From Carcharhinus longimanus (taxonomy: Eukaryota): a DNA stretch of 64,000 nucleotides. The notes under the pieces were generated by a model. The model was not told the DNA's origin, ran no database searches, and was given only the letters and a program-made list of their open reading frames with translations. This document shows positions 9,052 through 58,273 of this stretch, piece after piece. The stretch lies in the NCBI GenBank assembly GCA_030264375.1, contig JASCQW010000072.1, forward strand, positions 54,618,822-54,682,821. The letters are read 5' to 3'. Position numbers and translations under genes: made by a program. The stretch's first letter is position 1; each line of letters begins with the position of its first letter.

Positions 9052-10354
9052 CTGTACAGGAAGAGTAGAAACATTAACCATTGTTTGCTGGAGCAGACAA
9101 GTGAAGGAGCAGAGAGACAGATAAGAAATTACCTGTTAAAAACCTGTTTAAATAAGNNNNNNNNNNNNNNNNNNNNNNNNNNNNNNNNNNNNNNNNNNNN
9201 NNNNNNNNNNNNNNNNNNNNNNNNNNNNNNNNNNNNNNNNNNNNNNNNNNNNNNNNTGCTCCTATTTCTTATGTTCTTATGTAAGAACCATTCACAGAAA
9301 AAAAAAACAAGATTTCTGAGAACTACTCTGTGAGTCATGCTAAACAAAACAGTTTTATTTAAGGCCCTGAAACTGTTTAATTCTGCGATTATTTCTAAGT
9401 GAATTTTATTTATTTCCCTTTTTTTCCATATTCCATTCTCCTCCTGAAAACACTGACTCTGTTTGCACAAAATCCGTTGGCTTCTCTCTAGTATCTCAGT
9501 CAATTTCTCACTCTTCGTGTTTAAATCCAAATTCAACAGGGTACCCAATAATGAAGGTCATAATTGAACGAGGACCTGATAACCTCTTTCCAGCAAAGAA
9601 AGAGTAGGGATCATTGAACAACGAGCAGGAACAGGACCCATGGCTAATTTTTCTTGGAGAGTGGTGAGGGGAGATGCTGTAACTCGGTGTGGGGAGAGAC
9701 ACAACTTGCCGGGGCAGGGGGGTGCGCGCTTGCAAGTTGGAGATTCTGCTGCTCCAAAACGGCACTAATCAAGTCTCGCAGCAAACAATATTAAAACAAA
9801 TCTATCAATGCTTAACAAGATTACAGGTCCCATTAACATAGCTACATTAAAACAAAACAATGTTAACAGGAGGTTAAAACAAGAATGTTTTGTAAACACT
9901 GTTACTAGACAGTCTGTGAAAATAACAGCTTAAATGTTGTATTCACTACAAATTAAAGTTCGATTTGACAAATATAAAGTGTTACATATTTCTCAAAAGA
10001 ATGGGTGGCATAAAAATTCAATGGAAGGAAAAAATTAACATGGGGCTATTTTAGAAGGAACCTTCAAATAACAGTGGACCTGTCACCTAGAAAAAATTAA
10101 ATGTTGGCTCATTCCTTACCAACATCATTCCAAAACTTAGATTTAGTTCACACATGTACGCTTAGCTCTACCTCACTGCCACTTTAATTGACTGTTTGCC
10201 TGACGTCCAGTACTGCATGAGCAGAAATTTCCTTCAACTAAATATTGAGAAGATCAAAACCCTTGGGCTGGGGTCCTTCCATGAACTCTGTATCTTGTCC
10301 ATTGACTCCATCCCTTTCCCTGATAATTTAATTAGACTGCTTTAAACCTTGTCA

Positions 10355-10930
10355 GATTTGACCCAAGATGAGCTTCAAACAAAATATCTGCACCATTGCT
10401 TATGCTGCCTATGTACACCCCATAGCATAACTCAGCGTCACCTTTACTTCAACTTATCTGTTGCTGAAGCACAATTCTGTGTCTTTGTTATCTCCTCGAG
10501 TTGATAATTCCAATCCATTACTGGTTAGCCTTCTACATTCGATCCTCCCTTAACTTAAATACTTCAAAATGCTGCTGCCCATGTCCTAGCTCACACCAAG
10601 ACTTGTTCACCCACCATCACTGTGCTCATTGACTTTCTTTGGCAATGCTCCAATTTTTACATTTTCGTTCATGCTTTCAAATCCTTACATGGCTTTACTC
10701 CTCTATTCTTTTTCGGCCACAGAATTCTTTTTACAATATCTTTGCTCCAATAATTCTGACTTCATGATCAAGCGCGATTTTAATTGTTCCACCATTGGTA
10801 TCTATGCCTTCAGCTGTCAAGTTCCTAAAATCTTAAATGCCCTCTCTGCTTCACTATTTTTTTTCCATCCTTTATGACACTTCTTAAAATCTAACTTCCT
10901 GACCAAGGTTTTGGTTATCTGTCCAAATAT
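10355..10930 (+). mobile_element. L2-clade LINE 3' fragment
   Basis: Degenerate L2 RT C-terminal sequence (gataattccaatcc..., caaaatgctgctgcc) and an L2-like 3' UTR. Confidence 0.6.
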
Positions 10931-11093
10931 AAAAGTAGTAAAAAGTCTGACAACACCAGGTTTTAGTCCAACCTATTTATTTGATAATATACTNNNNNNN
11001 NNNNNNNNNNNNNNNNNNNNNNNNNNNNNNNNNNNNNNNNNNNNNNNNNNNNNNNNNNNNNNNNNNNNNNNNNNNNNNNNNNNNNNNNNNNNN

Positions 11094-12690
11094 GAGCAGA
11101 TAGGTAGCAGATGAAGTTAAATGCAGAGAAGTATGAAGTGATGCATTTGGTAGGAAGAATATGGAGTGACAGTATAAAATAAGGGATAAAATTCTGAAAG
11201 GGGTACAGGAGCAGAGGGTGCATATGTGCATAGATCATTGAAAGTGGAAGGACAGATGAAGAGAGCAGTTAATAAGATATATATTATTCTGGATAAGAGA
11301 AAATTACTGCGGATGCTGGAACTTGAATACCAAAAGAGAAAATGCTGGAAAATCTCAGCAGGTCTGGCAGCATCTGTAAAGAGAGAAAAGAGCTGATGTT
11401 TCAAATCCAAATGACCTTTTGTCAAAGCTAAAAGGCATAGAAAGTGAGGGAATGAAAGATGAGTCTTAGCCACAGAAACTAGAGAAAAAGACTGCTAATG
11501 GCTGTCCACAGAGTGAATAAAGACTGTGAATGGCCAAATGGCAGAGAAGCTAAAATGAGAGGGTTAGCTGTGACAGATGAAGATGCTGGGGGAAGGGAAT
11601 GGATGGGACAGAAGTAAAATATAGAAAAGGGGAAAAAAAGGTCAGGGAAAGGGGATAAAATGGGGGAAAGAGTTGGGGGGGGGGGAAGAAAAATGAAGAA
11701 GACATTGTCTTTCCTAATTTTTCTTCCCCCCACTCTTTCTCCCTACTTTATTCTCCTTCCCTCATCTTTGTAAACTTTACCTCTGTCCCATCCATTCCTC
11801 TCCCCCCTCTTCATTTGTCACAGCTTACCCTCTCATTTTAGCTTCTCTGCCGTTTGGCCATTCACACTCTATTCTCTCTGTGGACAGCCATTAGCAATCT
11901 TTTCCTCTGGTTTCTGTGGCTAAGATCATCTTTCAGTCCCTCACCCTGCAGTATAAATATCTCCCACTTTCTTTGCCTTTTAGCTTTGACAATGGGTCAT
12001 CTGGACTCAGAACGTCAGCTCTTTTTTCTCCTTACAGATGCTGCCAGACCTGCTGAGATTTTCCAGCATTTTCTCTTTTGGTATATAGTATTCTGAGCTT
12101 TATTAATAGGAACATAGAGTACAAGAGCAAGGAGATTATACTGGACTTAGACGAGACATTAATTACACTTCAGCTGGAATACTTTGTAGTTCTGAGTGCC
12201 ACACTATAGGAAAGATGCGAAGACATCTGAGAGAGTGTAGAAGAGATTTACTAGAATGATTCCAGATATGAGTAATTTCAGTTATGAAGGCAGACTGGAG
12301 AGATTGGAACTGTTGTCCTTGGAGAGAAGGAGGCTAAGATGAGATTTGATGGAGAGGAAGCTGGACAGAGTAGATAAGGAGAAATTGTTTTCACTCATAA
12401 AAGGTGGAATGAGAGGGCACAGATTTAAAATGATTTGCAAAAGAAGCATATGTGATGTGAGGAAAAAACCTTTTCACACAGCAACTGGCTCAGGTCTGGA
12501 ATGCACTGCCTTGACATGTGGTGAAGGCAGGTCCAATCGAAGCATTCAAGAGGGCATTAGATGATTGTTTGAATAGAAACAAGTGTGCAGGGTAGGGGCA
12601 AAAGGCAGAGTAATAGCACTAAGCCACGATGCTTGTTTGTACAGTCATGATGGGCTGAGTGGCTTCCTCTGTGCTGCAACAGTCCTGTGA
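11094..12690 (+). mobile_element. CR1 LINE 3' fragment interrupted by a Penelope-like palindrome
   Basis: WQMKLNAEKYEVMHL-like sequence at 11100-11150; LDRVDKEKLF...RGHRFK at 12360-12430; the LINE sequence resumes at ~12085 after the insert. Confidence 0.8.
11292..12082. mobile_element. Penelope-like inverted pseudo-LTR insertion (long palindrome plus tail) with hammerhead motifs
   Basis: Inverted arms ~11327-11704 and ~11706-12084; ~35-nt unpaired tail 11292-11326; flanking duplication ATATA(T/G)TATTCTG at 11279-11291 and 12083-12095. Confidence 0.8.
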
Positions 12691-13670
12691 TTTGGCTGAC
12701 TGTCACATTTTGTTTTATAATGCTCCTGTGAAATACTAAAAAAATGCTTTACTACATTAAAGGTGCTATATAAATACAAGTTTTTGCTCTGCTTTCCGGA
12801 CAGTGGTGTATAAGAATCCACAGGGTGCATTTATGCCTTATTGAGATACGATCTGATAAGTTTAGCATGCTTGGGAGGAACAGGTGAATTTGGGCCTGTT
12901 TCCAAAGCTCTCCATCAGAATTTTTTTTGTCTCACATCTGGTGTGCTGTAAATTAATTGATATAAATTGATTGCTATAATTAGTTGACAACTCCATAATC
13001 ATTGTACTGTACAACTACCAGCATGGAATCTTTTCATCAAGCAATTCCTATGTTGCTAATAAATTCAGCAAATTGAACTTAATTTATATATAATTTTGTT
13101 TGTCACGTTCGGCACAGTATAAGGGCAATACTCAGGCCATTGAGCCAGAAAGTTGTGAGTTCAAACTCCACTCCTGGATAAGGATGCCTAAACTAGGCTG
13201 AGACAAGTGCCAAAGGAAGGTGCCACCTTTTGGGCAAATTGGCTACCTAATTTTACCACATTAAAACAGTGATTACACTTAAAAAGTACTTTTCCGGCTG
13301 TCAAGCATTTTGGGATATTCTGAGGTCATGGAAGGCAGTATAAATGAATTAATGATTTTTCTCCTTTCCCAGACCCCAAAACAAACATGGGGATCTTGTT
13401 GCATAATTAACCTACACCTATTGATTGAAATGGAGGCAGCATGCCAACTTCTTGCTGCATACTTTCTCATAATGATTTCTGCATGCTGCCAGCACTAACT
13501 GTGCTGTTCATTAACTGCATGCATTAGCAAGGGGCCCAAAAATCATAATTCTGGACCAAAGCTTAAAGCTAGCCTGTACTTCTTAAAGATAGCCTGCATC
13601 TCTTAAAGGTGGAGTGGATTGTGGCTGGAAGCAGTGCTGGGTTTGTGAAGGGAATCTGACTTAGGAAAGA

Positions 13671-13925
13671 ATGAAGAATTGTGTAAAAGGGAGAAAGTGC
13701 ACTCCAAGCTTTTTGGACACTGCACTGGAGGTCTTGGTGCAGGTCGTGGTAATAAGGAGAGATGTCATGTATCTACAGCAGGGCCAAAGATCTTCCAGAC
13801 ACACAGTAAAAAGGCAAAAGGAGAAGATAGTCATTGAGGTCATTGCCAAGGTTCGAGCCCTAAGGAATTGGATGAAATGCTACAAGAAGATCAGTTTATA
13901 TCAAACAAGTAAACAAGGTCAGTGA
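13671..13925 (+). mobile_element. Harbinger-type Myb/SANT-like gene fossil (first exon)
   Basis: TPSFLDTALEVLVQVVVIRRDVMY...RNWMKCYKK resembles the Myb/SANT-like DNA-binding protein of Harbinger transposons; ends at a donor-like AAG|GTCAGT. Confidence 0.6.
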
Positions 13926-14070
13926 ATGCTTCTTAAAATGCTACATTTCACCAACTGTGCCACTAGCCTGAGCCAAAGAGTAAATGATCACTCTACCATC
14001 ACTCACCTCACAATCAGTCATCTACAATCAGAGACAGTGGGAGCTAATCAGAGTGGAGCACTTACTTGCG

Positions 14071-14915
14071 TGTCATAACCTTGGGATGATAATAGTACAA
14101 CTAATATGGACATTGTATACAAGTTCCCTTGGTAACAAGCAATGACTTGCCCAGGTGGAACTCATCGCCTAAGCGCTTTATAAGGGAGACACTGGGCAGG
14201 GTCTGCAGAACTGTTGCCCTAGTAGGGATGTGTGTATGTATGCCATACATTCAGGGTAGTGGTTTTATTTTGTGTTCAACAATAAATACATTTGGGCCGT
14301 CTGAATTATTTTATATATATGTGTTTATGGGGAACGTTTAAAAATTTGGCTTTATGTTGCACACAGCTGGTATATCTGGGGGAATGCAACTCAGATGCTG
14401 GGTAAGCAGGATAATTCTTCACTTTAACCTTGCAAATGGTTATATTAAGTAGTGTTTGTTTACTCAAATTTCCCTGGGATTTCTGATTAGAGTGATTTGA
14501 TGGGGTCATATGATGTTGTGGTTTGAGTGCAGTCCTGGGTTTGAAGCAAAGAAAAAAGGCTCTTGCAGAAAGAAGTTTAGCTTAAGCTTGGTTGAAGTTA
14601 AGGATTTTGCAGTCTTCTGGAACTAACTCTTTCTTTCTGAAAGCTTCAAAACTGTCTACACTCATAGCAAGTATATTTATGGTTGCTAACTGTATTTAAT
14701 GTACCAATTGAGTCTAAGTGGAATTTTGCTTATTTGAAACAGTAAGTTTGAAATTGTTTCCTTTTCATTTGGTAGTTGTATTTAAACTATTACTAAATGT
14801 TTTACTATCAAAGATCCCTAATTTAACAGTGGAATTACTTCTGAAGCAAAATATCCTATTGTCACATTTATGTCAAAATAGAAAAAATATTGGAGCCTAG
14901 TCTGGTGTCCTAACA
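14071..14915. mobile_element. possible solo LTR
   Basis: Begins TGTCATAA, ends CCTAACA (TG...CA) and appears to interrupt Harbinger-like sequence; no clear TSD. Confidence 0.35.
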
Positions 14916-17393
14916 ACTTCAAGGGAGGAAGTAGTGCTTGTCATTATTGAATAGCCATTTCTGATGCCATTACCCACTAGCTAGTTCTGAAACCATTGAA
15001 GAGGACGGTATCTTCATACCTATTCTTTTTCTCAGATACCACTTACTGCTGCATATCAGTCTCTTCTGATTACAACTTGCAGATGGTGTAAGCATGCCTT
15101 ACTTTCACCTTTCTCCTCACCATAACCTTAGAATGACAATGTAGACACAATTTTTCACTTGATTCACACATGCAGCCACAGCTCAGATCCTGACGATGTG
15201 CATTTTTAGAGATGGGATCAAGAGACACTGGGTGTGTGGGGGCTGCAGCCAAGGCAAAGTGCAAGTACCAACTGACCAGAGGGTGAAGCCTCTCTCACCT
15301 CTTGATGGGGACATCAATGAGTCCACCTGCAGAAGCATGTTGATAGGTGTATGCAACAAATGTTTAGTTCATTCGGCAAGCCTGTCAAAGTTCAGGAACT
15401 TGGCATTGGGCTTGTTCAGGGCCTGGCCCCCACCTTTCCCAGTAGGGAAGTGGTGGTCAACTGTGGATGATGCAGCATATGATGGTAGGTGTCACAAATT
15501 CCATTGCAGTGCAAGCAGTAACTGCCCATTGTCCTTGTGCTGCTGTGGAAGATCAGACTGTTGTCATGCAAACTCCGATTCCCGCTGTTATGGCTGTGGA
15601 TCATAGTGTTCAAAGGGACTTGGAGGTGGCACTGTCATTCAGCAGTCTGTCTTCCAACAAATTACATGGATTGTTGAGATATTGCCTGTTAATTATATCC
15701 ATTAAGGTTCAGTGTATATATAGTGAAAGGCACCAATTGGATGGTTTCTTATGCATATAAAGAGAGATACTACTGATGCAGGGTGTGAATCAAACAAGAT
15801 ATCGCCCCATAATTTAATAATAAATCTATACCAAGTGAAGATTGACAATGTTTTTTTTCACCAGCTGGCTCTCAGGAATATAAAACTGCCCAATGGTGTG
15901 GCAGTGGCTTTTTTGGAGTACAAACTTCCTAGTAGCATTTGTGCTTCCACCCCTGCTTCTGTGTCATCTTGTTTTCCATCAGCCAGTAGTCCCTCAGGTT
16001 GCGGCTGTCCATGTTGAGATGGTGCTTTGTGCTGCTGTGACTGCTAAACCCAGAGTTGCTCAGTCATTCTCTAAGGCCATCTGCATTTTCCATCAGCCAT
16101 GCTTCAATCACTGGGATGTGCAAACATGTACTGCGAGAAGGCATGATTTCATTGATCACTTTGGCATTTAATGTTAATTTTTGCATTGCAGCCAAGTGGA
16201 TGCTGTGGTATTCAGTGATAGAGAGAAAGAAAAGTCTTGGGCTGTTGGTGAATGGGAAATTGAGATGTTAGTTACTGGTATTGCACCCAAATTATGTCTG
16301 CAAGGACAGCAGAGTAGAAAGGGGCATTTAAGGTTCATTCTACAGTGTTTGGTGCTTTCTATCATTCTTTCTGGTTAAAGGTCTACAGGGAGTGATGTGC
16401 CAGGTATTAGAGGATTGTTTGCTGACTTCAGGCCTTCAGAACAAACTTCCAGACATGGGTGCACTGGTAAATGAGACAGGGAGAATAAGCAGAGATGATA
16501 CACAGCAAAGACAAGTTGCTGGGAAAATAATTAGCATCCCTCATAATGGCAAGGTGGTCAGCACATAATAGACCACAATGAATCTTGACACACTTCTTGC
16601 TGGGTACTGTTGACACAGCTGACAGCAGAACGAAACATCATAACTACTGCCAGGATACCTGACCTTAATGATTTGTTCATTGCCTGTGGTCACACACCAG
16701 TTGGATGTTGAGAAAGTGGAATGACTTTTGATTCTAGTGTAAGAATGATAATGATTCAGTATTGACTACAGGGAGTCAATGGCACTGTGCACCGTGGGGT
16801 AAGCCTACAGTGTTGTCCTTACCCTGTACTGTGGTTGCACTTGTGGCTACAACAGGTGACAGATTTCAGTGAGGGCATCCATAGTGAAATGTAGGATCTC
16901 ACAATCTGTTCCTTGCTAAGGTTCACACAGGATTGAATTGGTGGATGTGGCTTTCTGCTGAGAGCTCTTCTCATGCTCTGCATGACTATAGAAAGCACCA
17001 AACACAATCATAGCAACAGCCTAAAGAAATTAATCAGGAGCTAACCTCTCAATGGTTGGTGATTTGTATAAATAGAGGGAGGAATCCTTACTTCTTAACA
17101 TGGGTTCAACCGTTCAAAGTTAAGAGAGTGCACTGACTGGAGGGCTGAGCTCCAAAACAGCACTGCTAACATCAAATCGGTGTTGCATGCTGGATGACAT
17201 TATGATTTGCCTGCCCTGCATAATTCAGATGAACGTCAGCCATGTTTGTGCTAATGGCCTCACCAAAGTAATTTGTGACAGAGATGTACACACACACATC
17301 AAATTCTATTTTGGTTCCTTTCAACAGAGGCTATTTGCTCCCCCGCCAACTCTGAGGGATGACAGTAAACATTAGATGACATATTCTACGCAC

Positions 17394-18991: not shown

Positions 18992-21743
18992 CTACAAAGA
19001 AGCAAAACAAAATAAGGAATACTCATGAGGTTAAGGGGAATGGGCGGTTACAACAATGCCTCCCCCCACATCACCCCCTCAACCCCTGTACTCATTTTTC
19101 CAAGTTGCCAGAAACTCTGTTCCAAGTTTTGACTGACTCAATTAATTGAACATCGCCACACTGAAACTGTGGCAACTTTGTTGATGAAAGATTCTCACAC
19201 AAAATTATTATTTGTTTGGTTCAAGTATTTCCCATTACAACTTGTATAAGGTTTAATGTTAATGAACTCGTGATAGTTTCACGCTTCCTCATCAGTAACA
19301 TGTTTAAGTCCAATCCTGCTTCTACTCACTTTTCTAAGATCTGAATGGAGAAGAATACCCATCATTTGGATTAAATATGGAACAGTCCTACCTGCCTGCT
19401 TTAGTGAACATGAAAGCCTCAAGTTATTCCATCAGCCAGCATCATCAAAAACAGATTAATTTCACAAGAAGGAAGCCATTTTGTGCTGTCTCTTTCCACT
19501 AGCTGTTAAAACTAATTTTACTGCTTTGCTTTCTCCCTGTCTGTTCCTCTGCTTCAAATGTTTATCTCCTTCCTTTCAAGATGCAATGCTGTCTACTTCA
19601 ACCATTCCTGCTGGCAAAACATTCCACGCTCCAAAATCCCCCCTAGATAGAGAAATTTTACCAACCTAGTCGCTGCACAAAGTGATGGTTTTAAATTGAT
19701 GATCCCACTTCACTTACTATACAATCTGTGAAAATAGTCTTTCCATATTCACTCTACCAATGCTCTGCACAAAGTTATAACATTTGTTTACATCTCTTAT
19801 GCTTCTTGTAATGAAGAAGGCTTCTATGTCCCAAGCCCTCTCACATAAATAGTTTCCATTGGCAAAATCATAATGAATCTATCCTGGATGTTCTCTAGGA
19901 ATTTACAGGAGGATTTAAAAAAATCAATGGATTTTTTCAACAAAGAGCCGGTGAATTCTCTTCAGTGTTCCGGACAATATTTATCCTTCAGCTAACTATA
20001 ATCAAATAAAAAAAAAGAAAAGGGGTGATCTTGAGCCCATGTTTGCCATTTGCAGAAATGCCAGTAGGAGTTCAAGATCCAGAAAGACCCAGAGATGGCA
20101 AATCTCGCTGGTGAGATTGCAATTTCAGAGTTTTGCTGCCCCCTTGTTATCAAATTCATGCCCATACAAGATCAATTTTAATAAATTTGCATATTATTAA
20201 TAGCCCCCCCCACCATGCCAGATATTGAACCCCTGCTGTACTTTAAAACTGTGTTGACGTGGCAAATGCTGATCATGGGAGGAGGAGGTGTTAATTGTTT
20301 GGTCTGGGAAGGATGTCCTTTAAAAAATGGTGCCCCAATCTCAGTGCTGCCTGGCTTTGCCAGCTTGTAGAGTGCCTGTTCCCCCCACCCAAGTATGAAA
20401 CATGCCCACCTGTTTTTATTGATAGAATGTGGTAAGATCCGGAGAGAAAACGGGCATGTTTCTCTGGAGAGAAACATGCCATTTTTATTTTCTGAAACCA
20501 ACACTTCCGTTTTTTTGTTAAGATTTCACCCAGAATATCTAGTCAGTATCATACTGCGGGAGCTTGCTTTGTGTAAATTGATTGGCCTAACCCAAAACAG
20601 TAGGACTACACTGCGAAAGTACTTTCACTTTAAATAAAGCATTTTGGATGCTGCAATGTCATGATAAGCTCTATATAAATGCAAGGTTTTCTTTATTTGC
20701 ACCCAACATCCAAAGACATTCACTTTCCAAAAAGATCACTGGATAAAAGCAAAGTACTGTGGATGCTGGAGATCTGAAATAAAAACAATGTGCTGGAAAA
20801 ATTAGCTTTTGTCAATCATTGGATAGTGAACAGGAGTGAAATCTCTTTTTCTTGCCCCAAGGGTGGAGGTACAAAAATCACTTCCAGCAGCCACTCAACC
20901 AGTAGTTCATTTGAAATTAGTTGCCTCAGTAAAGACTAAAGCCTGGATTTTGGCAACTAAGACAGATAACATGAATAGGAAAATTTCCCGACATGCTGAA
21001 ACCACCTCGGTAAAGTCAAAATGCATGATTTTTGCTCTGGAGTATGGGGAGGGTTAGAGCTGGGCACGCTGACCCCAGAAGCAAAGTGTCGGCAGTCATA
21101 GATCAGGCAGATGCTGAAGTAGGCAGGAAACCTGTCTTGGCTGTCTAGAACTTCTTCAAAGCTGTTTTAGAAATCTTTCGGGTCTTTTGCCCTCACCCCT
21201 CGTCTCCACCCAACCCACATGACCCCTGATACCTGCCACGCCAATTTAAGCCCCCTTTTCCACTCTCCATGGCCCCTCATAACTTGCATGTCAACTCATG
21301 TCTGCACATAGTCCTTTATATCCTTTGTTCCTACCTCCACTGCCTCTCACGCGATATACACCATGGATAGACCTCAGGGCCAGGTGGAGATGAAAAAAAA
21401 TTAAAGACCTAATACAGTTTTCACACCTAAACAATGATAGTGAAAATAAATCTCATTCATGAAATCCATTCAAAGCTTTAAAATCTCAGTGTTTCATCTC
21501 TTATAAATACAAACTTCTAGTCAAACCCAGTATTAAAGACATTTAATCACTTAATGTCCTATTTAAGCTCTCAACCAAATTGTGTGTTCAGAACCCCCTT
21601 TTAAGATAATTGTAGCTTTTGAAATTCAGCCAAGCATTCAAAATGACATAGTTATAGCTCATTGGGTAAATGCTAACAAAGACCTCTATTGAAACAAAAC
21701 CAGATGCTACTTTTTCTCCTAACCTACCCCTGCCAGTCAAAAC

Positions 21744-21829
21744 TATGATGTGGAGATGCTGGCGCTGGACTGGGGTAAGCACAGTAAGAAGTCTCACAAT
21801 AGCAGGTTAAAGTCCAACAGGTTTATTTG
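21744..21829. mobile_element. Penelope-like terminal fragment (tail plus one arm)
   Basis: ATGATGTGGAGATGCTGGCGCTGGACTGGGGTAAGCACAGTAAGAAGTCTCACAATAGCAGGTTAAAGTCCAACAGGTTTATTTG, same family as the 45.3-kb and 58.0-kb elements. Confidence 0.7.
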
Positions 21830-31852: not shown

Positions 31853-32266
<414 letters not shown>

Positions 32267-40625: not shown

Positions 40626-41689
40626 CTCTTGTGTAATTCTGTATCATGTATTTGAGTATAATAATGCCCCTGTGAATCTTCGTGGAATGTTTTATCACGT
40701 TAATGGCAATATTTAAATAGACGTTGTTGTTGTTCCCAGCCCTGCTGTTCTGTAACTGACAGATTTCCTGTTTTTTTTGTTCCCTCAGTGGTGTTTTTAT
40801 TGTCGTCTATTTTGTTCTGATCTGCTGTGAGGGACCCAGGTGAGTTCCTGTCTGCGCTGCCTGCTGAATGTTGGTCTTATTCCCAACACGGAGGGTCTTT
40901 TCCTCGTTGAGCTGATTCCCCCACCTCCCGGGATCCCCCCACAAGGTGCCCATGTGCACAGGGCTGGAGAGGACTCATCGACCAGGGGGTTTGTCATGGG
41001 AATGCAGTTGTGTTCCCTCAGCGTCTGTGGAACTGCCCCCTTTTCCCCACCCTCACAGCCTCCTGCAGGAGGGGGGTGGGGAACCAACCCCTGGGGAAGT
41101 GGCAGTTATTGACCACAGAATGATGCTGACAGATGGAGGCCATTCTGCCCATCTCGTATGTGCTGGTTCTTTGAAAACTCATGCATTTATTAAATCCCCC
41201 ATTTGTATTTATTTAGGAGGAAATTTCCCTGGAATGTGATCCTCCTGGCTATTTTTGTAAGTATTTTTAAAATTCCTCAGTAATTTATCTGTTAATTCAG
41301 CCTCACACCTTCTCCGTCCCAGCGTTCTGCTAAATGAAGCAATGCCAGCTGGACCATCCCTCACAGCATTGACCCAACTCCATTCCGATATTTGTCTTGA
41401 TATCTACAGTCACCGTGTCTAAGTCCAATTTCAGCCAGCCTCCCGGTGCTCTGCTGTATCTCACTCTGATGAACTGTCGCGCCCACCCGGTGGGGGGGGG
41501 GGGGTCACATTGAAACCACTTCAATAACATCTCCCACCTTTGCCCCGTTTCAACTCTCCTGCTGCTGAAACTCTGGTCCTGCTCACTAATACCTGGGGGA
41601 TTAGCAGGGTAAATATGTGGGGATGCGGAGATAGGGCCTGGGTGGGATTGTGGTCAGTGATGACTCGATGGGCCGCATGTCCTCCTTCT

Positions 41690-42197
41690 CATAGAATCAT
41701 AGAACCCTACAGTGCAGAAAGAGGCCCTTCAGCCCATCGAGTATGCACCGACCACAATCCCACCCAGNNNNNNNNNNNNNNNNNNNNNNNNNNNNNNNNN
41801 NNNNNNNNNNNNNNNNNNNNNNNNNNNNNNNNNNNNNNNNNNNNNNNNNNNNNNNNNNNNNNNNNNNATGCATCACCTCACATTTTTCTAAATTAAACTC
41901 CATTCATCAGCCCATTGGCCAAATTGATCAAGATCCCGCTGCAGTTGGAGATAACTTCCTTCACTGTCCACAATGTCACCAATCTTAGTATCATCTGCAA
42001 ACTTACTAACCATGCCTCTATATTCTCATCCAAATCATTAATATAAACGCCAAAAATCAGTGAACCCAGCACTGATCACTGAGGCACACCGTTGGTCACA
42101 GGCCTCCAGTTTGAAAAACAATTCTCTACAACCACCCTGTGGCTTCTGTCAAGAAGCCAATTTTGTATCCATTTAGATACCTCACCCTGGATCCAGT
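41690..42197 (-). mobile_element. CR1/HER1 LINE fragment spanning a gap; HE1-like SINE 3' part adjacent at ~41595-41690 (+)
   Basis: MEFNLEKCEVMH, FADD-type RT motif, ATAGAATC-type tail. Confidence 0.8.
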
Positions 42198-45319: not shown

Positions 45320-45438
45320 GATGTAGAGATGCCAGCATTGGACTGGGGTAAACACAGTAAGAAATCTCACAACACCAGGTTAGAGTCCAACCAGCGGTTG
45401 GACTCTAACCTGGTGTTGTGAGACTTCTTACTGTGTTT
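45320..45438. mobile_element. short Penelope-like palindrome with tail
   Basis: 43-bp arms 45350-45392 and 45396-45438, 3-nt loop; flanking TTTTATG(A/G)GATG duplication. Confidence 0.8.
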
Positions 45439-55957: not shown

Positions 55958-58038
55958 TTATGGTTCTGCATGCATTGACAGCTCTCCAGTATCTTACACT
56001 AGCCCTCTGCAAGCTCAGATAATAAGTGCCACCTGGCAACTGGACAGAAGGGGCCACAAGATAGTATCCAAGAATGGAAGCTCCAGTTCCCCTCCTTGCC
56101 GTATGCATGGGCATTGAGCACAAGTCCAAAATCTTCCCATCTCATCAACTGTCAAGATCAACAAACATAGGAAGCAAGAATTAGATATCTGGGGCACGAT
56201 TTCTGTGTGCTGAATTGGGTCAGAGCAGAGGTGAGCAACTAAAAAAATGGCGTCAACATCATCCATGATTGTATCACTTTCCATTCCTACCTCTGTTAAT
56301 TTTCACGAAGGTGGGAAGACAGCGAGATAAGGGCAGGGAAGTGAAATCATCTACATCTTTACTTAGGGCATTTCAGCAATTAAGCAGCTAGTTAAGTGCT
56401 TGTCTTCTAAGTTATTGAATTTTTTGCTAAACCAGGTAGCTGTTAGGAGCTGTGTAAAGCTGATCAACTCCAGCCTATTGTGAACAAGGTCAAGGTCATG
56501 AAAAATGTTATATTTGAACAAAGTGGAAGTTTTAAAGAAAATTTATGCCACAGCAATGGAATTTTAATAAGGCTAATATTCTCCTACTCTATTCCAGGCT
56601 GCAGCTTTCCATGGCCCAAGTCAATATGAAGATTCAGATATGCAGGTAACAGCTGCAGCAATGGTTACGAGTCAGGCCACAATGTGGCCTACCTCGCCAG
56701 AGTCCTGCTTTCATTTCAACTCATCACTAATCAGGTGCCTCTCCCGACTCCCATCGATTAACCCCTTGCTTCCACCAGAGTCTGAAACTTCACAACCTAG
56801 GAACAAACTGCCTCTCGAATCCCACCTCCTCAGCCAAAATTCAATCCTTGAGACCTTTGGTGATAACACAGTCCTTTCAGTTAGATGTAGATCTGTGCTA
56901 TTTTACACTAACCCCTCCAACGGCCTTCACACCAAGCTACCACATTTTCCTTACCAGCGGCAAACTGGGCACAGATCAAAGCAACTTGAAATGAATATAA
57001 CTCAACAGGCCAAAAAAAAAAAGATTTATAGAAAGCGAAAATGCAGCTCAACAAACAAGAGAAAAACCAGATAAAAGTATATAACATTACTTTATAACAG
57101 TGACTACACTTTCAAGGTGCTTCATTGGCTGTAAAGTTCTTTGGAATTTTCTGCAGTTGTGAAGGGTACTATGTTAATGCAAATCCTCCTTCTTTAGATA
57201 CTTGGAAAGATAGAACTATATCCATAGGTAAGCTATATCCATAGGTATATATAGATCCAAATGGATAGACAGGGATTTGTAAACAGCTAAATATAGATCT
57301 TTGATTCAGTATGAACTGTTCAAATTGGAGTTGTATTTCCATGTGATCCAAACCAGAATTCAAATTACAGCTCCTACAACCTCCATGCAGCCCAAGATCT
57401 TCTAACGCTGATATTAATTTGGTAAATAAATAGCATTCTCGCACCATGATTGCATTTTGTTTATTATTATGTGCAGAAGGTTACTTATAATTTCCCCCTG
57501 CTCTTCTATTTCCACAACACCATTCCATGATAGGGAGTTGGACTGAGTATTGTTTTNNNNNNNNNNGTTTTCCTGATCTAAGCCATCTCAGATCTGAACA
57601 AGGAGTTTCAACTGATCAAATCATTTCCTGCTCACCCTTATTACATAGAACGTGTGATTGGGTCATAACCTTTAGGGTTATTTAATTCTGTAGTGTTCCT
57701 GATTAATCCTGTGATGATGGGTCACATCGTCAGCCTCCAGGTAAAAGGATCAAGTTTCTGCAACACTGGGCTTTGTTTCTATTTACCTTCAGCACGAGTT
57801 ATTAAATAATGCGGCTCAGGGATACTATAACCTGTTAATAAAATGAAAGTTAAAAGCTGCCCTCTGACTCAGCTAGCGAGGCAGTAAGTGAAGGAAGGAC
57901 AGAACAGTAAATGCCTAAAACCATCTCATTTGTATGACTACAATCTCAGCTAGGACAGTGGTTAGACCACCACAATCAACCTTGTTGCCTCTAGAGAAGG
58001 GAAAATCAAACAACTTCACTCACCTATTGAAAGTGGGT

Positions 58039-58273
58039 ACAGGAAGAAGTCTCACAAAGCCAGGTTAAAGTCCAACATGTTTATTTGGAATCATGAGCTT
58101 TCAGAGCACTGCTTCTTTATCAAGTGAGTCATTAGAGCTTGACTCACCTGATGAAGGAGCAGCACTCTGAAAGCTTGTGATTCCAAATAAACCTGTTGAA
58201 CTTTAACCTGGTGATATAAGACTTCTTACTTTGCCCATTCCAGTCCAACACCAGCACCTCCACATCATGGTTA
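58039..58273. mobile_element. Penelope-like palindromic insertion with tail and TSD
   Basis: 88-bp arms 58044-58131 and 58140-58227, 8-nt loop, ~45-nt tail; TSD CTATTG(A/G)AAGTGGGT at 58024-58038 and 58274-58288. Confidence 0.88.
58141..58183 (+). ncRNA. minimal type I hammerhead ribozyme motif
   Basis: GACUCAC-CUGAUGA-A-GGAG(CAGCA)CUCU-GAA-AGCU-U-GUGAUUC: intact core boxes, stem I UCAC/GUGA, 4-bp stem II, palindromic AGCU stem III. Confidence 0.7.

Follow-up and report, generated by a model that had tools for sequence, protein, structure and literature searches.

A palindromic Penelope-like insertion in a predicted HIPK2 intron of Carcharhinus longimanus and the probable compensatory U3-A8 core of its hammerhead motifs

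The window (the whole 64,000-nt stretch of Carcharhinus longimanus DNA that was analysed) carries minus-strand exons of a gene that is, as judged by translation, HIPK2: an exon at 32012-32221 (minus strand), compared with PDB entries, matched HIPK2 with an E-value of 3.6e-32 and HIPK3 with an E-value of 1.1e-24. The HIPK2 exons that flank the element described here (end at approximately 17394 and start at approximately 9051, minus strand) were chosen by eye from translations and splice motifs. They delimit a predicted minus-strand intron of approximately 8.3 kb (9052-17393, with approximate ends and possibly small inner exons) that would hold the insertion. The element is bordered on the left by a fragment of a CR1-like LINE reverse transcriptase (RT) gene (11094-11291, plus strand), recognized by its match to a paralogous fragment, and on the right by the continuation of the same fragment (12083-12620, plus strand, right end approximate). 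When this paralogue, from another part of the window, is aligned to the two flanks, the match on the left ends at its residue 83 and the match on the right resumes there, so the two flanks are collinear and the element lies within the LINE fragment, as the preliminary description had proposed. CR1 is a presumed family name; a different RT-like copy in the window matches RVT_1 (E-value: 2.4e-9).

The insertion is a 791 bp head-to-head palindrome (11292-12082) delimited by self-BLAST, which reports an inverted repeat over 11327-12084 with its centre at 11705/11706. The two arms agree in 317 of 352 aligned columns (90%), the mismatches being 25 transitions and 10 transversions. The left arm (11327-11705, minus strand, in the same sense as HIPK2) is a 5'-truncated non-coding pLTR that lost its TATA box through a 23-nt deletion. 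The right arm (11706-12082, plus strand, antisense to HIPK2) is an inverted pLTR without a tail, and retains a TATAAA box (11952-11957, plus strand) that is the predicted pLTR promoter and lies 30 nt upstream of the first base of helix I. Only the minus-strand arm has a 35-nt 3' tail (11292-11326), defined by the alignment of the arms and by the two clusters of 3' ends, approximately 35 nt apart, in the family. The target-site duplications (11279-11291 and 12083-12095) are 13 bp in length and differ at one position. Self-BLAST and alignment thus recovered the long inverted arms centred near 11705, the 35-nt tail and the 13-bp duplication that had been described initially. In each of two public runs (one sample of another organism), a single contig continues from the left flank into the first 24 nt of the element, which is below the bar of 31 letters; DNA contigs from four public runs were mostly repeat copies.

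Other repeats in the window have a similar form. A second palindromic element at 58034-58237 belongs to another repeat family and has a hammerhead-shaped motif in each arm. Its family gave 7,252 pattern matches, and among the 100 listed 84 were C3-G8 and none was U3-A8; the left arm of the window element reads U3/A8 by eye, which is likely private decay. Further pieces of this family are found at 45350-45438 (a short palindrome, 94%), 21710-21829 and 10942-10975, the last of which, identified by eye, directly precedes an assembly gap (10994-11093). A tail-end fragment at 20744-20800 stands alone and is related to the present element (81% identity), and short palindromes of different repeats are located at 41638-41767 (75% self-complementary) and 2885-2951 (87%). 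A regular-expression scan of the window for more hammerhead motifs returned none and is unreliable, as it missed 58034-58237.

At least 2,491 candidate relatives of the arm are present in the 2.68-Gb genome, and a 37-nt tag downstream of the motif has 2,176 exact matches genome-wide. Together with a copy divergence of approximately 7%, the tag matches imply a family of tens of thousands of copies. Those copies that extend upstream hold a broken open reading frame with RT, a Cys linker and a GIY-YIG endonuclease domain in order; one long copy of the subfamily designated B below (L101) and other long B copies match protein P0003 over residues 259-694 in order (tblastn, E-value: 2e-50). A direct Pfam comparison of six degraded pieces of the reading frame gave no matches. 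Domains were therefore assigned via three homologous proteins, of which one (P0002) has GIY-YIG over the cut-off and none has RVT_1 over it; both matches are sub-threshold in P0003. When four long loci were extended, every reading frame was broken and no upstream motif-bearing pLTR was seen. The linker, visible in translations and alignments between RT and endonuclease, is of the CX2-5CxxC type described as common to Neptune and Nematis (PMC8557442). Because the reading frame ends 379-481 nt upstream of the motif (five copies) and the window arms reach only approximately 280 nt upstream of it, these arms contain no coding sequence and represent pLTR sequence from downstream of the stop codon.

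Three further features of the family are consistent with this identity. First, 3' ends fall at +91 to +101 in 29 of 59 copies and at +128 to +130 in 25 of 59. Second, an inverted partner lies within 1 kb in 18 of 70 copies; such pairs are common in the family and their apexes vary. Third, target duplications of at least 8 nt were detected by a strict test in 3 of 23 short copies, as against none in five shuffled pairings. With RT, a C-terminal GIY-YIG domain, an optional tail, an inverted copy and a duplication, the element can be classified from its sequence as an EN+ Penelope-like element (PLE), in agreement with the Penelope-like identity given in the preliminary description, and as Neptune-type by domain layout rather than by an RT tree, with a linker motif that is shared with Nematis. 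EN+ PLEs of the Neptune/Nematis type are described with the same order of RT, Cys linker and C-terminal GIY-YIG, with inverted 5'-truncated copies, target duplications and a 30-40-bp tail at one end (PMC8557442, PMC3846280), and in Adineta with a TATA-like box in the pLTR (PMC3846280); unlike the elements described there, the window copy has no coding sequence. Two clusters of 3' ends with an optional tail are also reported for the Poseidon PLE of Anolis carolinensis, where two RT start sites were identified as the source of the tail (PMC11167929). By analogy with published PLE work, the GIY-YIG endonuclease would have nicked the CR1 target, giving rise to the 13-bp duplication, and reverse transcription would have started at either of two internal sites, leaving one end with the 35-nt tail and one without; a fold-back or template switch may then have produced the inverted arm. 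In one copy (L216), a few telomere-like repeats take over part-way through the motif, directly upstream of the tag match. Many copies among L135-L234 lie next to assembly gaps, which would be expected if short-read assembly fails at hairpins, and palindromic copies are perhaps undercounted.

Each arm contains a minimal hammerhead motif, and both readings given in the preliminary description were confirmed as written. The minus-strand motif (11391-11429) reads AGCU-UUGACAA-A-AGGUC(AUUUG)GAUUU-GAAA-CAUC-AGCU, with U3 at 11425 and A8 at 11420, and the plus-strand motif (11982-12020) reads AGCU-UUGACAA-U-GGGUC(AUCUG)GACUC-AGAA-CGUC-AGCU, with U3 at 11986 and A8 at 11991. Further decay was evident in both copies, as had been suggested. 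The minus-strand motif has five changes with respect to the subfamily majority, including G16.2>A, by which the helix III palindrome is lost, and G10.1>A/C11.1>U, which leaves an A-U pair at 10.1-11.1; the core of the plus-strand motif is disrupted by G12>A and A13>G. Neither motif conforms to a minimal hammerhead in both core and helix III palindrome. Both are broken and likely inactive, and the palindrome is likely dead.

The element has a predicted folding energy of -538.9 kcal/mol (z-score of -42.6 against 20 shuffled sequences), with 340 pairs and a longest unbroken helix of 56 bp; 34 of the 39 nt of the minus-strand motif pair with the other arm. Pairing of several hundred bp between the arms in HIPK2 pre-mRNA, as previously proposed, is thus predicted by folding: a hairpin of approximately 340 bp would bury the sense motif. 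The stability of this hairpin, the retention in the plus arm of a TATA box that points antisense to HIPK2 and five derived changes common to both arms could be taken to mean that the palindrome has been co-opted in HIPK2 (as an editing substrate, intronic ribozyme or antisense promoter) or that it is a fold-back element mobile as a whole. We consider this very improbable, as the arms have 16 and 18 private changes against the five shared and have diverged from the family majority about as far as ordinary copies do (6.2% and 6.6%, against 7%), while both motifs are broken and inverted pairs with variable apexes are common in the family. An editing scar left by ADAR in the DNA of the window copy was ruled out, since neither arm has an A>G excess when its DNA is compared with the family majority. 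The window copy fits an old neutral insertion, and would be a neutral intronic fossil.

The U3-A8 core is carried by the whole subfamily to which the window copy belongs and was not generated at this locus. An exact pattern for U3-A8 gave 718 matches genome-wide, as compared with 313 for the G8 class (86 C3, 8 U3 and 6 G3 by hand count among the 100 listed) and 175 for A8 with a base other than U at position 3 (92 C3 by hand count among the 100 listed); backwards-pattern controls gave none. To this we added a motif-blind sample of 70 of the 100 tag matches listed, all from one contig, with two already-sampled loci and one inverted partner left out. Among aligned copies of this sample, all 43 that cover position 3 have U there, 42 of 45 have A at position 8 and 40 of 42 have a U-A pair at 3-8, the remaining copies being truncated, gapped or clipped. 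G12 and G16.2 are the majority bases and are decaying as CpGs (40/51 and 32/56). The majority base fits a minimal hammerhead at every position (invariant core, 3-8 Watson-Crick pair, H17, helices I and II, palindromic 15.2-16.2), and only one of 31 fully aligned copies satisfies every hammerhead rule. The consensus of this sample is therefore not canonical, and U3/A8 is not private to the window copy. Private decay of a canonical core would have precedents, as decay in canonical families often yields C3-A8 or U3-G8 single changes and one arm of the palindrome at 58034-58237 reads U3/A8; given 40 of 42 motif-blind copies and 718 exact matches, this explanation is ruled out here for practical purposes.

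The distribution of the core among subfamilies indicates when it arose. Using eight sites downstream of the motif, 129 loci were classed as subfamily B (81), subfamily A (43) or unclassed (5). U3-A8 is present in 71 of 81 B copies and in none of 43 A copies, in a sample that was stratified by core patterns and in which a few truncated copies are misclassed and a few A rows are from an older family, C. In family C itself, U3-A8 is found in 0 of 56 copies and C3-G8 in 40 of 56; U3-A8 was likewise absent among the 100 matches listed for the unrelated hammerhead-motif family of the palindrome at 58034-58237. Copy divergence is 17% in C, 9% in A and 7% in B. A midpoint-rooted tree of 48 rows, built from few columns with core positions 3-9 excluded, groups all 16 B rows in a single clade (100/97) that is nested within A+B (94/95) and separate from C. 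As B forms one clade while its sister A and the older C keep C3-G8, C3-G8 is ancestral and the swap arose once. Based on these alignments, U3-A8 is the inherited source state of subfamily B and not private decay, in support of the variant-core source family proposed in the preliminary description.

Rfam searches at E-values up to 10 returned no hammerhead among 51 matches for the window arms, and none in a B copy or in a canonical C3-G8 copy of subfamily A. Since the canonical copy was missed as well, the variant core is not the reason that Rfam overlooks the motif. As expected in the preliminary description, ribozyme counts based on CUGANGA only would skip a subfamily with this core, here the larger of the two sisters (718 versus about 270 exact matches); Rfam misses the canonical sister too.

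U3-A8 in nature and in PLEs, inverted ends and tails are already known. Natural hammerheads covary from C3-G8 to U3-A8, and the covarying pairs are stated to be active in vitro (Perreault et al. 2011, PMC3088659), which agrees with the tolerance assumed in the preliminary description; as far as that report describes them, these are not tied to retrotransposon ends lacking helix III. In Schistosoma mansoni, minimal PLE hammerheads with U3-A8 were given a dedicated descriptor, with about 1,300 matches (Cervera and De la Pena 2014, PMC4209133). The shark motifs resemble those reported for the Cercyon PLEs of that species (PMC4209133) in being minimal type I motifs in a pLTR with U3-A8 in place of C3-G8, in having an extra base between 9 and 10.1, a G10.1-C11.1 pair and a palindromic 15.2-16.2, and in occurring as pairs on opposite strands 100-700 bp apart. 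They differ in their vertebrate genome, their 5-bp helix II and the presence of a close canonical sister subfamily, by which the swap can be placed on one branch. The Anolis Poseidon PLE belongs to another clade and has a canonical C3-G8 core; its C3G/G8C double mutant is reported as a rescue (PMC11167929). No published vertebrate or shark U3-A8 PLE family was found in the literature covered, to which Lunse et al. 2017, which may list the variant, and one supplement of PMC4209133 would be additions.

A and B differ at six positions of the 39-nt motif: 3, 8, two in loop II, 17 and 1.1. All six differences obey hammerhead rules, as do six random changes in 0.5-0.9% of simulations under rules fixed after the data were seen. 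Both subfamilies have C7, which creates a CpG at 7-8 in the canonical form, and decay at this dinucleotide is near symmetric: C7>U occurs in 42 among the 100 G8-class matches listed (approximately 130 of 313), and C3-A8 copies number approximately 160. Decay of subfamily A by C7>U and by G8>A in nearly equal measure shows that the CpG is hypermutable, and suggests that the swap proceeded via G8>A and then C3>U. A surviving C3-A8 source subfamily is not needed as an intermediate, as the C7>U and C3-A8 counts fit CpG decay. In the proposed sequence of events, N7 would have changed to C in the common ancestor of A and B, creating the CpG, after which deamination would have produced G8>A and C3>U would have restored the tertiary pair on the branch that leads to the U3-A8 clade. 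The result may have been retained because a dimer- or protein-assisted ribozyme was under selection in the source. We regard it as highly probable that the window element consists of head-to-head 5'-truncated ends of a Neptune-type PLE, that U3-A8 is a compensatory swap likely fixed once in a working source and that the window motifs are likely inactive.

An alternative explanation, which we consider unlikely, is that the U3-A8 core is a relic: the ribozyme would already have been dispensable in the source, and two transitions would have become fixed in a single master copy through drift and CpG decay. The swap has a single origin, and as one evolutionary event it is a single data point; both of its changes are transitions, one of them at a CpG. 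The motif is no better conserved than its flank between A and B (6 of 39 nt versus 7 in approximately 65 columns 3' of the motif). Clean two-sided stem changes are absent and family C is mixed at position 2.2, so that the stem covariation anticipated for the family proved thin, with only one-sided G-U/A-U changes between subfamilies. No copy begins at the cleavage site (0 of 57 motif-blind copies). In the predicted monomer fold of both A and B, an alternative helix between core and cleavage strand is preferred (P of 0.98 and 0.95). Published work points the same way: PLE insertion proceeds in vitro without cleavage, no Anolis reads are reported to end at the cleavage site (PMC11167929) and metazoan minimal motifs cleave poorly in vitro (PMC4209133). 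Three observations argue against a relic. First, all six A/B differences spare the invariant core and retain pairing, an outcome seen in approximately 0.3% of simulations given a change at position 8. Second, the 3/8 swap weakens the alternative helix, so this helix does not explain the swap. Third, the same swap is reported independently in Schistosoma PLEs (PMC4209133) and elsewhere (PMC3088659). Selection on a working dimer- or protein-assisted ribozyme, unproven as it is, is placed well ahead of the relic. In A and B (L031-L134), C7 permits pairing between the core and the cleavage strand, in the same register in both; this predicted off-state is absent from family C.

In both subfamilies, many copies begin abruptly at helix I. 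In the pattern-found set, which is biased to whole motifs, the start lies no more than 8 nt from position 3 in 36 of 48 B copies and 37 of 43 A copies; in the motif-blind set, 29 of 57 start between -9 and 0, 14 of these exactly at -4. Among longer copies, a TATAAA box precedes this first base of helix I by 30 nt in 41 B copies and in five copies classed as A, while the spacer differs between the subfamilies. The simplest reading of this 5' edge is a putative transcription start. A splice acceptor is a less likely cause than a start site, as nothing is common to the sequences upstream of -4. The Drosophila Penelope promoter is described as internal and TATA-less (PMC2377424), while a putative TATA box is reported in the Adineta pLTR (PMC3846280). 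Poseidon is similar in that its copies do not begin at the cleavage site; in the description covered here (PMC11167929), no such edge at helix I is mentioned. We tentatively put forward, as a possibility that we do not favour, that the main mobile RNA is a 100/135-nt TATA-driven transcript that starts at the first base of helix I and is copied uncleaved as a SINE-like ribozyme stub, to tens of thousands of copies, with the source ribozyme under selection and a CpG-driven G8>A rescued by C3>U on one datable branch.

Whether minimal motifs of this kind are under selection has been left open so far, as they cleave poorly in vitro and as cleavage was reported to be dispensable for insertion in one reconstituted system (PMC11167929). 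Sister subfamilies in one genome that differ by a compensatory swap of the 3-8 tertiary pair provide indirect evidence of selection on the minimal motif. The abrupt 5' ends downstream of a conserved TATA box offer a start site that can be tested and, should the stub model be true, A and B would form a natural matched pair for testing the role of the Penelope hammerhead.
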